Below, in pieces: positions 1 to 12,777 of a stretch of 13,931 nucleotides of DNA (position 1 is its first letter; each line of letters begins with the position of its first letter). This DNA is from a virus. Lineage: Duplodnaviria > Heunggongvirae > Uroviricota > Caudoviricetes. Position numbers and translations under genes: made by a program. The DNA is taken from IMG/VR virus record IMGVR_UViG_2728369553_000003; one strand, given 5' to 3'. The notes beneath the pieces are model-generated. The model was not told the origin of the DNA. It worked only from the letters and a program-made list of their open reading frames with translations, and did no database searches.

Positions 1-1734
1 TCTCGTACAGCATGGCTCTGCCAACCGCCATAATCAGCGCAACTGCACCATCGATTTTGTTTTCCGCCTGCTCTTTGACGGGCTTCACCACATCATCGTT
101 ACCCGGAATGGTTTTGCCGACCACGTTGCCGATACACCAGGTCATGATGGGATTGCCATCATGATGAAAGCGCCCCGATTCAATTGCCGCTTCCAGCTCT
201 TTCATCGGGTCGGACATGTTGGTGTAGTTCTGAATGATAGTGATGGGGTTCAGGTCTTCATCAGCAAGGTCATGTGACAACCCGGTCGCCCCGAAGGGGT
301 CGATGGGTGACTCACTGACCGGGCTGATTTTGTTCGCCGCTTTGGCCTCCTCGAGGATGTAGCGATAATCCACCTCCGCACCATCGGTAACGGTCAGAAC
401 GCCCATTTCCACCCATTTCTGAAAGCGTTCGGCTGTCCGTCGATCTTCATTTTTCTCGACGCTGTACACCGTGTCATACGGTACCCAGAAACGCGGGGCC
501 ACACTGTAGTAATGCGTTTTACCGTCAATCTCGCGGGTATAAAGTCGCGCCATGCTGTTCATATCCAGCTTACGCGCCAGGTCAAAGGCCAGAATGCACG
601 GCTGCCCCTCGAACTGCTCAAGAGTCAGTGATTTATCCTCGCAGCTCTGCCAGCTCACCAGATTGAAATACGCCGAACGCGCCGACACCCAGATATTGAG
701 GTGTTTTGTTTTAAAGACGTTTGCCAGACGGGCGTTATTTTTCGCACGCTNNNNNNNNNNNNNNNNNNNNNNNNNNNNNNNNNNNNNNNNNNNNNNNNNN
801 NNNNNNNNNNNNNNNNNNNNNNNNNNNNNNNNNNNNNNNNNNNNNNNNNNNNNNNNNNNNNNNNNNNNNNNNNNNNNNNNNNNNNNNNATCGCCTTCGTC
901 AACGGTATAGATGATCCCGAACAGTTCATCGTTGGGTACCGACCCGTTGAGCATCTCGATAACTTCCCGCCGCTTGTCGTAGCACGGCCCCTCAATGTTG
1001 TACCCGGCAGTAGTAATGGCCCACATCAGTGGCTGACGTCGCGCCCCCATCCCGGTAAGCATCGTGGTGTAAAGCGCATCGGTGGCGTGCTCGTGATATT
1101 CATCCACCACCGCACAGTGGGGTGATGAACCATCACCGGGGTTACCGATCAGCGGTTCAAAACGCGCACCATCCTCCGGACGGTTCATGTTTGAGGCGTT
1201 AACCTCAATCCCGAACGCTTCCGTCAGCATGGGTGTGCGTTTACACATCAGTCTTGCCGGACGAAAGACTTCCCATGCCTGTTTCTCCGTCGTGGCACCG
1301 GAATACACTTCCGCGCCGAACTCGTTATCACAGGCAAAACAATACAGGGCGACACCGGCAGAGATTGCCGATTTGCCGTTCTTACGGGGGATTTCGGTAT
1401 ACACCTCACGGAAGCGGCGCAGCCGGGAGCCTTTATTGACCCAGCCAAACGCGCAGCAGATCACAAAGAGCTGCCACAGCTCCAGCGTGATGGGCATCCT
1501 CTTAAATGCCCACTCACCCTTGGTGTGCGGCAACAGCTGAATAAATTTAGCGGCCCGTTCAGCCAGGTCCTTGTCGAAGCGGTAACGAAACGACTTACTT
1601 TTTTCCGCCATCAGGTCATCAAGATGCCGCTGGCAGGCCTGAATCACAAACTGGCAGGCCACAATCTTTCCGCGCACGACATCACGGGCATACTGATTGG
1701 CAGCATTTACGTTGGGGTAAGATTTCCGGCTCAT
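1..1734 (-). CDS. Phage terminase large subunit (ATPase/nuclease), split by assembly gap 751-888; C-terminus runs off the window
   Basis: Minus ORF with ATG at 1732-1734 overlapping the TerS stop (ATGA). Walker A (EIPRKNGKS) and Walker B (AVVDEYHEH) are present in the translation. After the N-run the protein continues in a different minus frame to the window edge (1-60 translates as [19 protein letters not shown]), so the gap length is not real. Confidence 0.85.
751..888. other. Assembly gap (138 N) inside the terminase large subunit gene
   Basis: Run of N; the reading frame differs on either side. Confidence 0.95.
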
Positions 1735-2350: not shown

Positions 2351-2701
2351 TCACTTAAGTCGTTCACGGGCCGTCTTCGCCTTATGACACGGCCAGCACA
2401 GACTCTGCAGATTACAGTCGGCATCAGTGCCGCCATGCGCTTTAGGGATGATGTGGTCAACGGTTTTCGCCTCACGCACCACACCAGCACGCAGACATAA
2501 CTGACACAGGCCTTTGTCACGCTTCAGGACACCCGCGCGGATACTGTCCCACTTCGAACCATAACCGCGCTGATGACGGGATTGTCCTGGCTTGTATTGC
2601 TTCCAGCCCTCGCTTTTGTGGCTTTCGCAATAGCCTGACGGATCAGTCGTGGTATTGCGGCAACCGCGAAAACGGCAGGCTTTTGGGGTTCGTGGTGGCA
2701 T
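2351..2701 (-). CDS. HNH endonuclease (terminase-associated)
   Basis: 116 aa with cysteine pairs and a DHIIPKAHGG...N...CWPCH motif. ATG at 2699-2701 with GAGGGG upstream. Located immediately upstream of TerS. Confidence 0.85.
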   Translation of the reverse strand: MPPRTPKACRFRGCRNTTTDPSGYCESHKSEGWKQYKPGQSRHQRGYGSKWDSIRAGVLKRDKGLCQLCLRAGVVREAKTVDHIIPKAHGGTDADCNLQSLCWPCHKAKTARERLK

Positions 2702-2736
2702 TTATATCCCCTCTTTGGTGCACGCTTACAATGCGT

Positions 2737-2760
2737 AAAAAAGCCTCGCATTAGCGAGGC
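2737..2760 (-). terminator. Putative rho-independent terminator after the 74-aa moron
   Basis: Hairpin GCCTCGC-ATTA-GCGAGGC at 2743-2760, followed on the minus strand by a T6 run (plus-strand A6 at 2737-2742). It abuts the N-run 2761-2808. Confidence 0.45.
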
Positions 2761-2808
2761 NNNNNNNNNNNNNNNNNNNNNNNNNNNNNNNNNNNNNNNN
2801 NNNNNNNN
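2761..2808. other. Assembly gap (48 N)
   Basis: Run of N. Confidence 0.95.
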
Positions 2809-2909
2809 ATATCTTGAAGGTGAATACTTATTGTCTTATCTATCCACGGGAAACATTAAGATTATTACACCCGTTAGTTGGGAAATAAAACAAAATGCAG
2901 GTGGTTTAT

Positions 2910-3134
2910 TTATTCTTTGCTGATTGCTTTCTGAATGGCATCGGCTAATGGTTCAATTAAGCCAATAGCTGCTTTTAATTCCTGTTCAAATTTTGCACTT
3001 GTAGCCTGACCACCTGCAGAAGAAAGTGAGGCCTTAACTAATTCAAGGGCAGCTTGAACAGCTATAACCCTCTGTTTTTGAGCTTGAGTTACAGGCTGAG
3101 CACCTATTCCTGAAGGGAAATAATTCTCTAACAT
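2910..3134 (-). CDS. Hypothetical 74-aa protein in an AT-rich moron cassette downstream of Rz
   Basis: ATG at 3132-3134 with a strong GGAGG SD 5 nt upstream. AT-rich relative to flanking phage genes. Followed by a terminator hairpin. Helical, no signal peptide. Confidence 0.6.
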   Translation of the reverse strand: MLENYFPSGIGAQPVTQAQKQRVIAVQAALELVKASLSSAGGQATSAKFEQELKAAIGLIEPLADAIQKAISKE

Positions 3135-3401
3135 TACAACCTCCGTATTAAAAAGTGAGGTTACACATTACCCTTAAGATTACTCTTAGTGAAGAGGTAT
3201 CTCATAATTATCACCCTTACCAATAACGCTTGATGAAATTTGTAATGGACTGGCTCTTATTTCAACGCAACCACTTACCGCGCGCCAGATGCTTAACCTC
3301 AAACATTAGCAATGAGATGTTTAATCTGAATCCACTCCAGAAGTAATCACCACTCTGTCTACAGGGCCTGATGTGAAGGATGATGAGTAAAATTATCGCT
3401 A

Positions 3402-3863
3402 TCATCGAAGGCATTGCGTCCTGATGTACTCCTGCAGGTAGTTAACCTGTGCGGTTATCCTGTCGATTCCACTTCGGAGACGGTAATAATTGAGTTCAGC
3501 ATCTGCTGTAAGTCCTGGGCTTTCTCCATCGCCCATGCCGCTGGCTCTGGTCGTTGATTTTGCACAGGTGGCGGCGACTTGCAGGCGCTTACGCCCAGAA
3601 GAAACATCAGCACGGAGACTTTCGATAGTCGCGTTAGCATCAGCAAGCTCCTTTGTGTATCTGGCGTCAAGTTCTGCTACGTCACGTTGACGCTTCTGCA
3701 TATCAGAGATAGTCGCCATAGCCGAATCTAATGCCATAGCATTCTCATCACGCTGCTTTTTGTATTCGATGGCTTTGCTGTGGTAATAATTTGCTGAACA
3801 GATAAAAGAACCAATGACAGTAACGAAGAATGCAGCGATAACCAGCTTATAGCTCAACTTCAT
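3402..3863 (-). CDS. Rz: Rz i-spanin
   Basis: N-terminal TM segment, then a coiled-coil region with strong similarity to lambda Rz (AQRD.NA..L..A.A.I.DMQ.RQRDVA.LDA.YTKELADA). Overlaps the 3' end of the endolysin gene. Confidence 0.9.
   Translation of the reverse strand: MKLSYKLVIAAFFVTVIGSFICSANYYHSKAIEYKKQRDENAMALDSAMATISDMQKRQRDVAELDARYTKELADANATIESLRADVSSGRKRLQVAATCAKSTTRASGMGDGESPGLTADAELNYYRLRSGIDRITAQVNYLQEYIRTQCLR
3455..3640 (-). CDS. Rz1: Rz1 o-spanin lipoprotein, embedded in the +1 frame of Rz
   Basis: ATG at 3638-3640 with a GGAG 8 nt upstream. Signal peptide with lipobox (LLGVSAC), then a proline-rich segment (KSPPPVQNQRPEPAAWAM) like lambda Rz1. The tracker start at 3670 is TTG. 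Confidence 0.75.
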   Translation of the reverse strand: MLTRLSKVSVLMFLLGVSACKSPPPVQNQRPEPAAWAMEKAQDLQQMLNSIITVSEVESTG

Positions 3864-4766: not shown

Positions 4767-5102
4767 TTATTTTACATCCCAAGGTAGTTCCTCAAGAGAG
4801 AAGACTAATTCATTATCAATGATTTCGTATTCTGCATAACCTTCAACCTCTCCTGAGAAGTTATTGTCAACGCATCCTTCATAATAGCTATATGGTGCTA
4901 TAAAGTGAAACCCATATTCATCTATCTCTGTGATTTCAAAATTGTAGTAATCGTAAGAATATCGAATATCATCATCAGAAATAGAACTAAGTACATAGTT
5001 ATTAAATTTATCGGAATGCTTAACGATAAGCTCTGACAACGCGTCAAGATTCTCTGGAGAGATATTTCCTAACGGTAATCTGTACTCAACGGCATTAATC
5101 AT
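4767..5102 (-). CDS. Hypothetical highly acidic 111-aa protein; moron between the Q-like gene/tR' and the holin
   Basis: ATG at 5100-5102 with a GGAGG 4 nt upstream. AT-rich. About 24 D/E against 5 K/R; no signal peptide or TM. Flanked by its own candidate promoter and terminator. Confidence 0.7.
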   Translation of the reverse strand: MINAVEYRLPLGNISPENLDALSELIVKHSDKFNNYVLSSISDDDIRYSYDYYNFEITEIDEYGFHFIAPYSYYEGCVDNNFSGEVEGYAEYEIIDNELVFSLEELPWDVK

Positions 5103-5128
5103 ACAACCTCCTTTTTAACTGATATGAG

Positions 5129-5157
5129 GTTATATAATGTGTTTCAGTACAAGTAAA
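5129..5157 (-). promoter_or_regulatory. Candidate sigma70 promoter for the acidic moron
   Basis: Minus strand TTTACT-17nt-TATAAC upstream of the moron SD. Overlaps the T-tract of the tR'-like terminator. Confidence 0.3.
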
Positions 5158-5182
5158 TAAAAACCCGCTCAACAGCGGGTTC
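5152..5182 (-). terminator. tR'-like rho-independent terminator downstream of the late promoter
   Basis: 9-bp stem AAACCCGCT / AGCGGGTTT with loop CAAC at 5161-5182, followed on the minus strand by a T-rich run, about 40-60 nt downstream of the predicted late transcription start. Confidence 0.55.
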
Positions 5183-5227
5183 GTGAAAATTATCAACGGC
5201 AGACATACAAAGCCCATCGTTGAGAAA

Positions 5228-5256
5228 ATCTTATCCATATTTTTTGAAAAATGCAA
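5228..5256 (-). promoter_or_regulatory. pR'-like late promoter (the Q engagement site would overlap)
   Basis: Minus strand TTGCAT-17nt-TAAGAT immediately downstream of the Q-like stop at 5288-5290. The arrangement promoter, short leader, terminator, lysis genes matches lambdoid late control. Confidence 0.5.
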
Positions 5257-5287: not shown

Positions 5288-6040
5288 TTATCTCGTCACC
5301 TTTCTCAATTGCGTTTCAGCATATGCTTCTTCCTGCCAGCACTTTGTTACTAGTTTATCAATTACGTCTGCATATCCTTTGTACCACTGATAATCAGTCA
5401 GGTCTGGAACCAGCTTCTGGACATGACGTCGTGCCAGTGTAGTTGGTAAACGGCTAAACCGGTTTCCATTGCAACGCCCACAAATCTTATAAACAGGCGT
5501 GCCATGAAGCCGGGTCCTTTTTTCATCCAGGACAATACCTTTACCCTTACACCCTCTGCACGCTGTGCTGACTTCTCCCTTACCATGACAATGCTGACAT
5601 AGTTCCTTCACCCACTCTTCCTTGATAACAGATTCCCCGCTTCTGGAGTGTTTCACCACCTCGCGCAATACATTATGAAATCCAGTACCAGCACAATGCT
5701 CACAGCGAGCCTTACTTGCCGCAGACCTGGAATAATCAGCAAAGGCAAAATTCACAAGGTAAGGAATGATCTGTAGCCGGGTTTCTTCACTCAATTTATT
5801 CAATGTCGGGTTATCCAGTGCCATCGCGTAATTGAGCAGACCTTCAATCGCAAACTGAGGATCCTGAACACCAACTTTTGCCAGGAATAAGGCAAACCCA
5901 AGCGGTGCTTTCGACTGCACCATCCCCTGCGCAGCCATCACATCCGTAATCGTTAAACCACCAGAGCCTGTCGCCGGTGCGTCATCGCTCAGTTTTGGAG
6001 ATTTCGGGGAGTAATATTTCGGTAAGGCTTCAAGGTTCAT
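5288..6040 (-). CDS. Putative late antiterminator Q-like protein (250 aa, four CxxCxGxG zinc-finger repeats)
   Basis: Position immediately upstream of the pR'/tR'-like elements and the lysis cassette. Cys-rich repeats CEHCAGTG, CQHCHGKG, CRGCKGKG, CGRCNGN. ATG at 6038-6040 with a GGAGAA SD. Family assignment rests on context and recall. Confidence 0.55.
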   Translation of the reverse strand: MNLEALPKYYSPKSPKLSDDAPATGSGGLTITDVMAAQGMVQSKAPLGFALFLAKVGVQDPQFAIEGLLNYAMALDNPTLNKLSEETRLQIIPYLVNFAFADYSRSAASKARCEHCAGTGFHNVLREVVKHSRSGESVIKEEWVKELCQHCHGKGEVSTACRGCKGKGIVLDEKRTRLHGTPVYKICGRCNGNRFSRLPTTLARRHVQKLVPDLTDYQWYKGYADVIDKLVTKCWQEEAYAETQLRKVTR

Positions 6041-6985: not shown

Positions 6986-7111
6986 NNNNNNNNNNNNNNN
7001 NNNNNNNNNNNNNNNNNNNNNNNNNNNNNNNNNNNNNNNNNNNNNNNNNNNNNNNNNNNNNNNNNNNNNNNNNNNNNNNNNNNNNNNNNNNNNNNNNNNN
7101 NNNNNNNNNNN
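6986..7111. other. Assembly gap (126 N) hiding the boundary between the KilA-N and DUF968 coding regions
   Basis: Run of N. Confidence 0.95.
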
Positions 7112-9746: not shown

Positions 9747-10837
9747 TCACCCCCTGAATCCTGCCGGGATCTGGCTGTAGTCCACGTTGTCGTAACTGGC
9801 TTTGAAGTACGGGTCTTCGCGTTTTTCGGTGTACGTGCTGACGGACGGCGATAAGCGCAGGGAAAGCTCATCCCATTTTTCCCGCAGCTTCGACGGGCTG
9901 AGCACGTTACGGCACCAGAACGGATCGCGGCTGACGCGGCTGTACATCTCGCAGATTTGTTTGTGAGTACGACCATCCTGCACACACATCAGGCGAATTT
10001 CGTTTGCCCAGGCTGTCCAGTTCGGTTCTTTGGGACGAACCACCTCGCCGTCACATTCGGCGGCTTGCTCGTACAGGGCGATGATTTTTTTCCAGAGCCA
10101 CTGTGCGCAGGTCAAATCATCCTGCGTTCCCCACTGGCGCTTTTTAGGGCTGAATACAACCGCATCAGGATGGCGAGTTAAAAAATCCTGTTCATCCGTC
10201 TGCGTGTCCGGTTGCGAAGCGTCCGGACGAGAAGGTTTTTTATCTGACGGATCATGTTTTGATTTTACTGACGGATCCCCGCCAGATTCTGACGGGTGAA
10301 AACCCGCTTTTTTGCCAGATTTCNNNNNNNNNNCTCCTGTTCAGCCGTCTGCGTGTCCGGTTGCGAAGCGTCCGGACGAGAAGTTTTTTTATCTGACGGA
10401 TCATGTTTTGATTTTACTGACGGATCCCCGCCAGATTCTGACGGGTGAAAACCCGCTTTTTTGCCAGATTTCGACGCATCAAATTTTGACGGGTCAGATT
10501 TTGATGCGTCAGATTTTGACGGGTCAGAATCTGACAGTTGAGAAAATGCCGCTGCCTGAAGCTTCGCAACGTTAAGCTGATAAACATTCGACGCATTGCG
10601 GTTACCCTGGCGACGCGCCTTACGCGTTAACCAGCCTTCTGCTTCCAGCCGTGCGATAGCCGTCCTGACGGTACTCATCCCCGCGCCAATCTGACGGGCA
10701 ATAGTTTCAATTGATGGCCAGCACACACCTTCGTCATTACTGAAATCAGCCAGGCGGGCCATAATTGCCACGCTGGATAATTTCATGCCTGACGCAGCGC
10801 AACCATCCCATACATAGCCGGTTAATTTAGTGCTCAT
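9747..10837 (-). CDS. O-like replication initiator, apparently split by a 10-N gap and an unmerged 138-bp contig overlap
   Basis: N-terminal winged-helix domain (10561-10837), then a repeat-encoded SDPSK/SDASK linker, then a C-terminal domain (9747-10185). The tracker reports two ORFs (10265..10837 and 9747..10115, the latter with a TTG start). Collapsing the duplicated 138-bp copies restores one in-frame ORF of about 313 aa. Confidence 0.65.
10186..10472. repeat. 138-bp direct repeat (10186-10323 and 10335-10472) flanking a 10-N gap; probable unmerged contig overlap
   Basis: The copies are identical except for two positions (10195 T vs 10344 G; 10235 G vs 10384 T). The 149-nt offset breaks the frame as presented, but the frame is restored if one copy is removed. 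Confidence 0.7.
10391..10540. repeat. Iteron-like repeats inside the O-like gene (candidate origin of replication)
   Basis: Five tandem 15-bp units at 10464-10538 (consensus about TCAGATTTTGACGGG), plus spaced CTGACGG motifs at about 10393, 10417 and 10437. Lambda ori likewise lies in iterons within O. Confidence 0.5.
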
Positions 10838-11185: not shown

Positions 11186-11778
11186 GCGTTAGTTTCTCCA
11201 CAGTCACGACACGCCACGGCGCCCGGAGCTGCACACTCGCGGGCGTCATTACTTTCTGAAATGCAAAAGATTTTGTAGACCAGTGCTGCATGCTCCTGCA
11301 GCTTCGAAATTGAGAGATACAGCTCGTCGTTAATTGCTGTCTTCTCATGCGGTTCCACCACACCGTCTTCGATTGCCGAACGAATCTGTCTGGAATAACT
11401 GCCAATCTGTTCAATGACTTCCAGCAGGCGCTGGTTAATATCGGCGTTGTCCACATCCTCGACGTCAGGAAGAGATACAAAGACGCCATTTGCAGACTGC
11501 GCCACAGCGTCAGCAATGAAGTGAGTTCCACCAGCACGTTGCAAAATCATTGCCCATCCCAGCGGGAAAATCTGATCGCCATCGGCACGAAGGCGGTTAA
11601 ATAATGCGTTTTCTGTTACATCCAGCCAGTCAGCTGCTTCAGCGTAACCACCCGGCAACGCTGCGATAGTTTTTCTGACAGCTTTCACGTACCACTCAGG
11701 CTGTTTTTCTACTTTCCAGTGATGCTTACCCACGGTTAGCCTCATCGTTCTGTGGTTTCTGTTAATCGATTTATCCAT
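11182..11778 (-). CDS. CII-like early regulator (phage regulatory CII / YdaT-type); start uncertain
   Basis: About 200 aa directly downstream of cro, in the cII position. The tracker start at 11847 is GTG and lies inside cro. Candidate ATG starts are at 11788-11790 and 11776-11778; the latter overlaps the cro stop (ATGGATAA). Confidence 0.5.
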
Positions 11779-11971
11779 TAGATTTTTCATAAAGCTCAGG
11801 TTTAAATGGCAACCGTCCGCAAGTTCTATATGCAGCTTCTGCTGCACGTCCTTTTGGAATTAACTGGCCCGGACGGTTTCGCCACTGATAAACGGCTTCA
11901 GTTGTTATGCCGAAAAAAGCAGCAACTTTCTCAATACTGCCGAAGTAGCTTTCGATATCGTCAGTTGTCAT
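11771..11971 (-). CDS. cro: Cro-like HTH repressor
   Basis: 66-aa HTH protein divergent from the cI-like gene. ATG at 11969-11971 with a GGAGG 4 nt upstream. Confidence 0.8.
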   Translation of the reverse strand: MTTDDIESYFGSIEKVAAFFGITTEAVYQWRNRPGQLIPKGRAAEAAYRTCGRLPFKPELYEKSNG

Positions 11972-12068
11972 ACGCCCTCCAAACTAAGTTTTATTAGATG
12001 CTAATTACAAATCTATCTTTGGTCAATAAAAACTAAGATTACTTAGCAATTCAAGAAATGGTGCTCCT
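11972..12068. promoter_or_regulatory. OR-like divergent control region with a PR-like promoter and CTAAG-based operator candidates
   Basis: Minus-strand TTGACC-17nt-TAGCAT (plus 11998-12026) upstream of the cro SD. Inverted repeat CTAAG-ATTA-CTTAG at 12033-12046 and a near-copy CTAAG-TTTT-ATTAG at 11984-11997. AACTAAG occurs at 11982 and 12031. Confidence 0.5.
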
Positions 12069-12695
12069 ATGGAAACGGTTGGTCAGCGTATAAAAGCTCT
12101 GAGAAGAGTTACCGGAACGTCCCAGAAAGAATTGGGTAAATTTTGTGGAGTAAGCGACGTTGCTGTGGGGTACTGGGAGAAAGACATCAATACCCCTGGT
12201 GGGGAGGCACTTTCGAAATTAGCGAAGTTCTTCAATACGTCAATAGATTACATTCTTTATGGTGCTGAGTTTGAAGGCAAACTCGTCACAAACATGCGCA
12301 GAGTTCCTGTAATATCGTGGGTTCAGGCTGGGCAGTTTACTGAGTGCAGGGCAGCAGAAGTGTTTAGTGAAGTGGACAAGTGGGTAGATACATCATTAAA
12401 GATTGGTGATAACTCATTTGCATTAGAGGTTAAAGGTGACTCCATGACTAACCCTAATGGCCTCCCAACAATACCAGAAGGCGCAACAGTGATTGTAGAT
12501 CCAGATGCAGAACCTCGTCATGGAAAAATAGTCATCGCTCGACTTGATGGAACAAACGAAGCTACAGTAAAAAAATTAGTCATCGATGGCCCTCAAAAGT
12601 TTTTAGTGCCATTAAATCCTCGGTATCCCAACATCCCTATCAATGGTAATTGCCTTATCATTGGTGTAGTCAAAGGAGTTCAATACGAACTCTAA
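12069..12695 (+). CDS. cI: cI-like prophage repressor (XRE HTH plus S24 LexA-type autopeptidase domain)
   Basis: N-terminal HTH (QKELGKFCGVSDVAVGYWE), Ala-Gly cleavage site (VQAGQF), catalytic Ser in GDSM and Lys in TVKKL. Divergent from cro. Confidence 0.9.
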   Translation: METVGQRIKALRRVTGTSQKELGKFCGVSDVAVGYWEKDINTPGGEALSKLAKFFNTSIDYILYGAEFEGKLVTNMRRVPVISWVQAGQFTECRAAEVFSEVDKWVDTSLKIGDNSFALEVKGDSMTNPNGLPTIPEGATVIVDPDAEPRHGKIVIARLDGTNEATVKKLVIDGPQKFLVPLNPRYPNIPINGNCLIIGVVKGVQYEL

Positions 12696-12777
12696 GACCT
12701 CTCTTCTCTAACTAAGGCACCGAACTAAGAAAAGTTTGGTGTTTTCTCTTGCCATAATAACTAAGTTAAGTTAGATT
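12692..12777 (+). promoter_or_regulatory. OL/pL-like region: three AACTAAG repeats and a TTGCCA-17-TAGATT promoter
   Basis: AACTAAG at 12710, 12723 and 12759; CTAAG also overlaps the cI stop at 12692. Candidate -35 TTGCCA (12749-12754) and -10 TAGATT (12772-12777), with one AACTAAG copy in the spacer. Confidence 0.45.

Follow-up and report, generated by a model that had tools for sequence, protein, structure and literature searches.

A conserved small gene in a probable cargo cassette of an Escherichia coli prophage, and its leader, whose likeness to the cI operators is very probably coincidental

The window analysed here, the whole stretch of 13,931 nucleotides in the IMG/VR virus record IMGVR_UViG_2728369553_000003 (Caudoviricetes), is part of an Escherichia coli prophage of the e14/CPS-53/HK97-like kind. 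Between its Rz and HNH genes lies an AT-rich segment that encodes, on the minus strand, a protein of 74 amino acids (aa). This open reading frame (ORF) is genuinely a gene and belongs to a conserved, uncharacterised family, and the segment around it (2809–3237) is probably a horizontally exchanged cargo cassette (moron) in the usual cargo slot of an e14/HK97-like prophage. A preliminary description of the sequence had noted that a 10-mer, TAAGATTACT, is shared by the leader of the gene and an operator candidate next to cI, and had offered two explanations: control of the cargo gene by the prophage repressor, or chance in AT-rich DNA. The likeness is very probably a coincidence of two AT-rich palindromes and not a regulatory link, because the 10-mer is part of the cargo gene's own conserved leader.

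The gene (2910..3134, minus strand; WP_000892817.1) is identified by the ORF list, by a profile match and by its homologues. It matches PHROG 5901 with E=8.1e-29, residues 1–74 aligning with profile positions 1–70 of 70. A word-indexed search returned 13 relatives, and an exhaustive profile search returned 133 representatives at 50% identity, nearly all of 60–80 aa. The family motifs MLExYF, RLxAVQAALEIAKAS and LADAIQxAL appear in the alignments of the window protein as MLENYF, RVIAVQAALE and LADAIQ; M1, Y5 and R22 are invariant in the family, and L2, A28, A29 and A64–Q68 are nearly so. The AlphaFold (AF2) model, made with 86 sequences, has a predicted local distance difference test score (pLDDT) of 85.3 and a predicted template modelling score (pTM) of 0.70. 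The N-terminal 16 residues are extended in the model and are followed by helices at residues 17–39 and 46–72; we are confident in the two-helix hairpin predicted for the protein. The profile match, the homologues and the model agree with the helical product first proposed. Scans of the protein and 86 family members with Pfam, NCBIfam and PADLOC gave no match, the best hit of a profile search of PDB sequences had an E-value of 0.23, and Foldseek comparison of the model with PDB and BFVD gave only generic helical hairpins, none below E=1. The protein search proposed earlier as a check thus yielded a PHROG family and 13 homologues but no Pfam or PDB relative; the source annotations are all 'hypothetical'. 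The protein has an isoelectric point of 6.2 and a grand average of hydropathy (GRAVY) of 0.07, and by inspection no hydrophobic stretch suggests a membrane segment or signal peptide. It would be cytoplasmic, and the predicted fold suggests that it may act by binding another protein. The family is common in Enterobacterales, belongs to no curated family and holds a fixed slot in many prophages.

The cassette (2809..3237, minus strand) lies between a junction motif, CATTACAAA, and a terminator of the phage backbone. Its G+C content is 0.373, as compared to 0.48 for Rz and 0.56 for the HNH gene. Similarity to the P22-like phages CUS-3, Sf6 and epsilon34 (~93%) runs from Rz to 3238. As the similarity ends there, the segment after Rz common to these phages (3238..3401, minus strand) is backbone, and the cassette leader comprises 3135–3237 only; the 265-nucleotide (nt) leader described earlier as one unit has to be divided accordingly. 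CUS-3 does not have the cassette; there, a nearly identical terminator hairpin comes 12 nt after CATTACAAAT, so the cassette has been inserted between the motif and the backbone terminator. The terminator of the window (2737..2760, minus strand) is an intrinsic-terminator-like hairpin, GCCTCGC-TAAT-GCGAGGC (2760..2743), with a T-run, located ~150 nt downstream of the 74-aa ORF. The hairpin reported at 2743–2760 is therefore present in the sequence, but since CUS-3 has it without the cassette, it belongs to the backbone and is not the moron's own. An 89% homologue in another locus (L018) does possess its own terminator.

Of 5426 complete E. coli genomes, 38 have the cassette DNA (2809–3240) at an identity of at least 98.4%, and at least eight of these also match the rest of the window, cI included. 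Ten viral contigs carry it. The 74-aa gene is present or absent among otherwise similar phages. In HYM1, where cI and cro are the same as those of the window, the slot holds an 83-aa gene; this was considered as a member of the family and ruled out, the sequence being unrelated. The moron concept is said to go back to Juhala and colleagues in 2000 and to lambdoid and HK97-like phages. Like the morons of such phages, the cassette is an extra gene between two backbone genes, differs from the backbone in base composition, is found in some relatives while others lack it or have a replacement, and sits at the junction of lysis and packaging genes with a terminator after it. It differs from them in that the terminator is that of the backbone, the promoter is putative, the product is no known lysogenic-conversion factor and the family also occurs on chromosomes outside prophages. 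The cassette is a moron by presence and absence, by composition and by slot, with a putative promoter and a borrowed terminator; of the earlier description of an AT-rich moron between Rz and the HNH and terminase genes, the gene, the composition and the slot stand, and the terminator hairpin has to be assigned to the backbone.

Leaders of homologues were taken from 80 viral loci and 80 genome loci (L087–L166). Seventeen distinct leaders, termed type A, align without gaps with that of the window from about −70 to a segment complementary to the Shine–Dalgarno (SD) sequence, the anti-SD; the proteins behind them are 45–89% identical to the window's. A −35-like TTCACT (3188..3193, minus strand) is located exactly 17 nt upstream of a −10-like TAATGT (3165..3170, minus strand), and this spacing is gapless in the 17 leaders. 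The TT of the −35-like element (TTnAnn) is invariant in type A, and the −10-like consensus is TAATNT, with T, A and the final T invariant in 17/17. This conservation tips the balance, by a little, towards a weak sigma-70-type promoter of the gene's own, TTCACT-17-TAATGT. A consensus promoter scan found no sigma-70 site on either strand of 2600–3500. The spacer between the two elements contains an inverted repeat, TAAGA-N4-TCTTA (3175..3188; TAAGA-GTAA-TCTTA on the minus strand), and TAAGATTACT makes up one of its arms together with the loop. At the same centre, homologous leaders have repeats such as CGGAT-AA-ATCCG and CAGATAAATCTG. Among the 17 leaders, three of the five pairs of the repeat are changed on both sides, and 27% of the cells are unpaired. 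A leader peptide was ruled out, the short ORFs of the leaders not being conserved as peptides. The gene would be transcribed late by the Q-modified polymerase reading through from Rz, and probably in addition from the weak promoter of its own.

The SD sequence GGAGGTTG (3137..3144, minus strand) lies 2 nt upstream of the ATG at 3134. Its context is GGAGGTTGTAATG (3144..3132, minus strand), GGAG is invariant in the 17 related leaders, and the acidic 111-aa gene elsewhere in the late region has GGAGGTTGTATG upstream of 5102; the strong SD and the nearly identical context of the two genes, both pointed out earlier, are indeed present. Directly after the −10-like element follows UGUAACCUC(C), able to pair with GGAGGUUGUA; in minimum free energy folds the anti-SD UAACCUC (3157..3163, minus strand) can pair with GAGGUUG (3143..3137). 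In the 17 type-A leaders, 89% of the cells of this helix are paired, as compared to 37–56% with the partner slid. The leader of the acidic gene (near 5130) has the same anti-SD/SD block of ~40 nt, so that one type of block serves two cargo genes in the window. The common sequence, T.TAACCTCA ... GGAGGTTGTA, was observed at 5094–5142 and 3126–3172 (both minus strand). The hairpin of the acidic gene covers the AUG too and has a folding energy of −13.7 kcal/mol (z=−4.4).

The anti-SD just past the −10 would pair with the ribosome-binding site and start codon and so damp translation, above all on read-through RNA, and possibly only there if transcription from the putative promoter starts within or after the anti-SD. 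We put forward a function of the anti-SD as a tentative proposal, somewhat more doubtful than sound. Leaders that sequester the SD and RNA thermometers include ROSE and fourU. As in these, a segment upstream in the window's leader can pair with the ribosome-binding site. The window's pairing is G-C rich (CCUC/GAGG), unlike the weak U-G and A-U pairing of RNA thermometers, and the leader differs from ROSE and fourU in having neither family-wide statistical support nor an Rfam family. Rfam covariance models gave nothing at gathering score on the window, the sole match in 2600–3500 (E=0.29) being a chance one, and on the window together with 15 related loci they returned no family for the leader or for the junction hairpin described below.

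The 10-mer is exact at both places reported for it, 3175–3184 and 12034–12043. The second copy lies in the operator candidate CTAAGATTACTTAG (12033..12046) in the cI/cro spacer, which serves here as comparator and is not part of the cassette. The immunity region contains a P22-Cro-like gene (11771..11971, minus strand) and a repressor with HTH_3 and S24 domains (12069..12695, plus strand; WP_000450737.1). Its operator set consists of four CTAAG-N4-yTTAG dyads, each preceded by AA or A: two between cro and cI (11984–11997 and 12033–12046) and two just downstream of cI (12725–12738 and 12761–12774). A further half-site, AACTAAG, is seen at about 12710. The four operator spacers all differ (TTTT, ATTA, AAAA, TTAA), so that four of the ten shared bases are without recognisable specificity. 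The dyad CTAAG-N4-yTTAG has no match in the leader with up to two mismatches allowed; the leader site, TTAAG-ATTACT-CTTAG, has one good half-site, with its partner shifted by 2 bp.

In 17.8% of dinucleotide shuffles, 2810–3400 and the 97-nt cI/cro spacer have a word of at least 10 nt in common. Distinct 10-mers occurring at least twice in the window number 364, as compared to ~203 in shuffles that keep local composition. With shuffling of the whole window, there are five hits against 0.43 expected; we discount this apparent significance, because it ignores the local AT-richness and the choice of the word a posteriori. One of the one-mismatch copies of the 10-mer, TAAGATTATT (2857..2866, plus strand), is in the 3′ untranslated part of the cassette, and three or more such one-mismatch hits are found in 2.5% of locally shuffled windows. 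TTAAGATTAYT thus flanks the 74-aa ORF on both sides (2857–2866 and 3175–3184). The 3′ copy lies within TAATCTTAATGT, which resembles TAATCTTAAGGGTAATGT of the leader, and may be a remnant of a second leader.

Were the prophage repressor to bind at 3170–3190, expression of the cargo gene would be coupled to the lysogenic state. This proposal draws on the exact 10-mer common to the leader and the OR dyad, on the site ACTAAG-N6-CTTAAG with one perfect half-site and one that matches in 4/5, and on the site's position between the elements of the putative promoter, from which an operator could act effectively. Against it stand the half-site spacing, which is N6 where all four operators have N4, the variability of the operator spacer that supplies 4/10 of the shared bases, and a match at the chance level given above. 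In ECONIH4, strain 1428 and CX21, the identical cassette and 10-mer occur with ymfK/ymfT immunity; their repressors, of the YmfK type, align with that of the window over the S24 domain only, the DNA-binding domain being unrelated, and in their intergenic region the dyads are of the GTAC type and CTAAG sites are missing. The exact 22-mer of OR is found in 90 viral contigs, and the cassette in none of the 12 among them whose fetched DNA reaches far enough; of the 80 listed contigs out of these 90, none is among the ten viral contigs with the cassette. The count in related prophages that had been proposed as a check finds the 10-mer together with the cassette under ymfK/ymfT immunity, and the cassette in 0/12 operator-bearing contigs. 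Moreover, CACTAAGA is conserved in the leaders of other phages and hosts, an Erwinia genome for example. Set beside lambda-type OR and OL operators, which are bound by repressors with a helix-turn-helix and an S24 domain, the leader site is likewise AT-rich, near-palindromic and located in a promoter-like spacer, and it has the ACTAAG half-site in common with the four dyads of this phage; it differs in its N6 spacing, in being a single site, in lying 8.9 kb from the immunity region and in its independence of the immunity type. Taking the chance level, the failed dyad match, the unrelated immunity, the 12 contigs and the conserved leader block together, we regard repressor-responsive control through the 10-mer as very improbable, and of the two explanations offered at the outset, chance in AT-rich DNA is the better one. 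Very probably no hidden link runs from the immunity repressor to the late-region cargo gene, and the 10-mer match needs no follow-up.

The conserved block could also belong to a gene that is carried passively in the late operon, has no promoter and is expressed on the lytic, Q-antiterminated transcript only, the leader block acting in the RNA, on its translation, stability or processing. The gene is co-oriented with Rz and HNH inside the late operon, a PR′-like promoter and tR′ lie upstream (about 5160–5250), the scan returned no consensus promoter, and the leader can fold into a hairpin of the inverted repeat and an SD hairpin, with two-sided changes in the repeat as expected of an RNA stem. 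The RNA, however, folds no better than shuffles (z=−0.9 to −1.1), and what is invariant coincides exactly with the T, A and final T of a −10 hexamer at a constant 17 nt from TTnAnn. At the corresponding place relatives have a genuine sigma-32 promoter motif, and chromosomal copies far from any late operon must have promoters of their own. We therefore consider a purely passive gene unlikely. The inverted repeat may instead be the operator of another dimeric regulator, either a host factor or the 74-aa protein itself. The centre of the palindrome is kept with symmetric changes in the 17 leaders and overlaps the promoter spacer, but 27% of the cells of the repeat are unpaired, and the helical hairpin has no recognisable DNA-binding fold. 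In the loci L034 and L041 the proteins are 89% identical, yet the repeats differ, which argues against base-specific autoregulation; autoregulation by the 74-aa protein is not supported, near-identical proteins having different repeats. Binding by any such regulator is improbable in our view.

Several observations weigh against the reading preferred here, a cargo gene with its own conserved leader, a weak promoter and an anti-SD. One half-site in the minus-strand sequence ACTAAG-N6-CTTAAG does match the operators perfectly, and the repressor may bind there weakly. The E. coli copies of the cassette are all at least 98.4% identical, and for this reason the missing co-variation with immunity type is weak evidence when taken alone. 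The promoter is deduced from conservation: TTCACT agrees with the sigma-70 consensus in only 4/6 positions and TAATGT in 3/6. The SD hairpin of the 74-aa gene is unremarkable for its composition (−8.9 kcal/mol, z=−0.9); across the family an SD/anti-SD helix of at least 7 bp is found in 54% of leaders as compared to 40% of shuffled controls, in a lenient test, and covariation in the helix is thin, with two pairs changed on both sides. Neither homology nor fold match assigns a function to the protein. Finally, the window's leader lacks the sigma-32 motif, so that a link to stress comes only by association with relatives.

The consensus of sigma-32 (RpoH) promoters is CTTGAAA-13/15 bp-CCCCAT (PMC3168786). 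We scored CTTGAA-N13-15-CCCCAT allowing no more than one mismatch over its twelve bases; a looser rule, at most one mismatch per hexamer, was used for the positional scan of viral leaders. Of the distinct leaders, 17 of 57 viral ones and 12 of 75 genomic ones have the motif (29/132), as compared to 45 hits overall in 2.18 Mb of fetched DNA (both strands, leaders included). With the looser motif, it is located 40–51 nt before the ATG in nearly all of its occurrences in viral leaders, and in the leader sequences a 5′ hairpin usually follows it. Examples are L031 (3009–3130), L049, L058, L107–L113 (Serratia fonticola group) and L124. The allele with the sigma-32 motif, termed type B, is found in only two of 5426 E. 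coli genomes. No match to the motif was found near 3135–3300 in the window, even with 2+1 mismatches. By their motif, 29 of the 132 family leaders are like sigma-32 heat-shock promoters, a likeness known from the sequence motif; the window copy, TTCACT-17-TAATGT with no CCCC element, is unlike them. Nothing relevant on lambdoid prophages with sigma-32 promoters was found in a literature search.

The protein would most likely serve the lysogen in an accessory, stress-related capacity rather than in lysis or packaging, because many relatives appear to be sigma-32-driven and some are chromosomal, away from phage genes. For the allele of the window such a role, argued by analogy, is rather doubtful. 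Still more speculative, and to our minds clearly unlikely, is a picture in which the family is a stress protein exchanged between chromosomes and prophages, with many copies driven by RpoH, and in which the window's allele has had its sigma-32 promoter replaced by a weak sigma-70 type that starts inside or after the anti-SD. Translation would then be possible from RNA begun at the gene's own promoter, while in late read-through RNA the ribosome-binding site and the start codon would stay paired, so that lysogens would produce the cargo protein and its synthesis would be restrained during lytic growth. With the same anti-SD/SD on the gene at 4767–5102, this would be a general device for cargo genes in the late operon. 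The sigma-32 promoters offer a testable handle on a small prophage protein, through induction by heat or misfolding and dependence on RpoH, and suggest that part of the cargo of prophages answers to the stress response of the host and not to the phage's own switch. For specialists, the points of possible interest are limited to this association and the junction hairpin.

The junction hairpin is a recurrent structure of 36–41 nt at cargo-gene junctions, with the form CATTACAG, then a variable, covarying stem of 9–10 bp, then (C/T)GATAATG. It is always oriented along the late genes and occurs, among others, at L003 3887, L006 2944–2983, L030 3159, L034 3800 and L036 3885, and also at L055 3887 and at L067 3887 and 4561. 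The window has a relic of it without the inner stem (3207..3247, minus strand), with CATTACA at 3247..3241 and GATAAT at 3212..3207. The mosaic boundary with the P22-like phages (3238) lies inside this relic.

Among 66 viral loci of the family with enough flank, a lysis gene is located within four genes upstream in 55, and a packaging gene, with several terminase types represented, within five genes downstream in 52; both are found together in 45. The viral slot thus lies between the lysis cassette and the packaging genes, irrespective of the type of endolysin or terminase. Serratia phage OS31 has the same gene order as the window. In Serratia, Kluyvera and Scandinavium (many species), the family gene is chromosomal with non-phage neighbours, which include GGDEF, GFA, PnuC, GNAT, DUF1398 and pentapeptide proteins. 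No conserved partner gene was found beside the chromosomal copies across genera. The absence of phage neighbours implies that the function does not depend on lysis or packaging genes. The Scandinavium copies directly follow an apparent tRNA 3′ end (GGTTCGAGGCCTCGGTGGCGGTCCA), as judged from the sequence by eye. An Rfam int-alpA motif (42 bits, above gathering score) is located at 3484–3548 of L031, ~160 nt downstream of the family gene, and matches to isrI, isrJ and STnc100 occur elsewhere in related loci.

The late genes of the window are on the minus strand in the order Q-like antiterminator (5288..6040), acidic 111-aa gene (4767..5102), which is the second AT-rich gene, holin, lysozyme, Rz/Rz1 (3402..3863), 74-aa ORF, HNH (2351..2701), TerS and TerL. 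A likely late promoter, TTGCAT-17-TAAGAT, is seen just after the Q-like gene (5160–5250, minus strand), and is followed by a terminator hairpin, AACCCGCT-GTTG-AGCGGGTT, with a T-run. This PR′-like promoter and tR′ would place the acidic gene first in the late transcript. Four runs of N interrupt the window (751–888, 2761–2808, 6986–7111 and 10324–10333). Compared to the true sequence of near-identical genomes, their lengths are 48 for 6 nt, 126 for 100 nt and 138 for ~85 nt; the flanks of the 48-N run (2761..2808) are joined by 6 nt (AAACGA, minus strand) in every identical relative. As the runs do not keep the real length, neither the reading frame of TerL nor coordinates that span the runs can be relied on. 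After Rz, a 50-aa ORF is annotated at 3262..3414 (minus strand; WP_032146275.1, PHROG 11822). It differs from its CUS-3 counterpart by two synonymous and 11 non-synonymous codon changes, and the distribution of the differences over the codon positions, 8/3/2, makes coding in that frame improbable, though the DNA is ~93% conserved.

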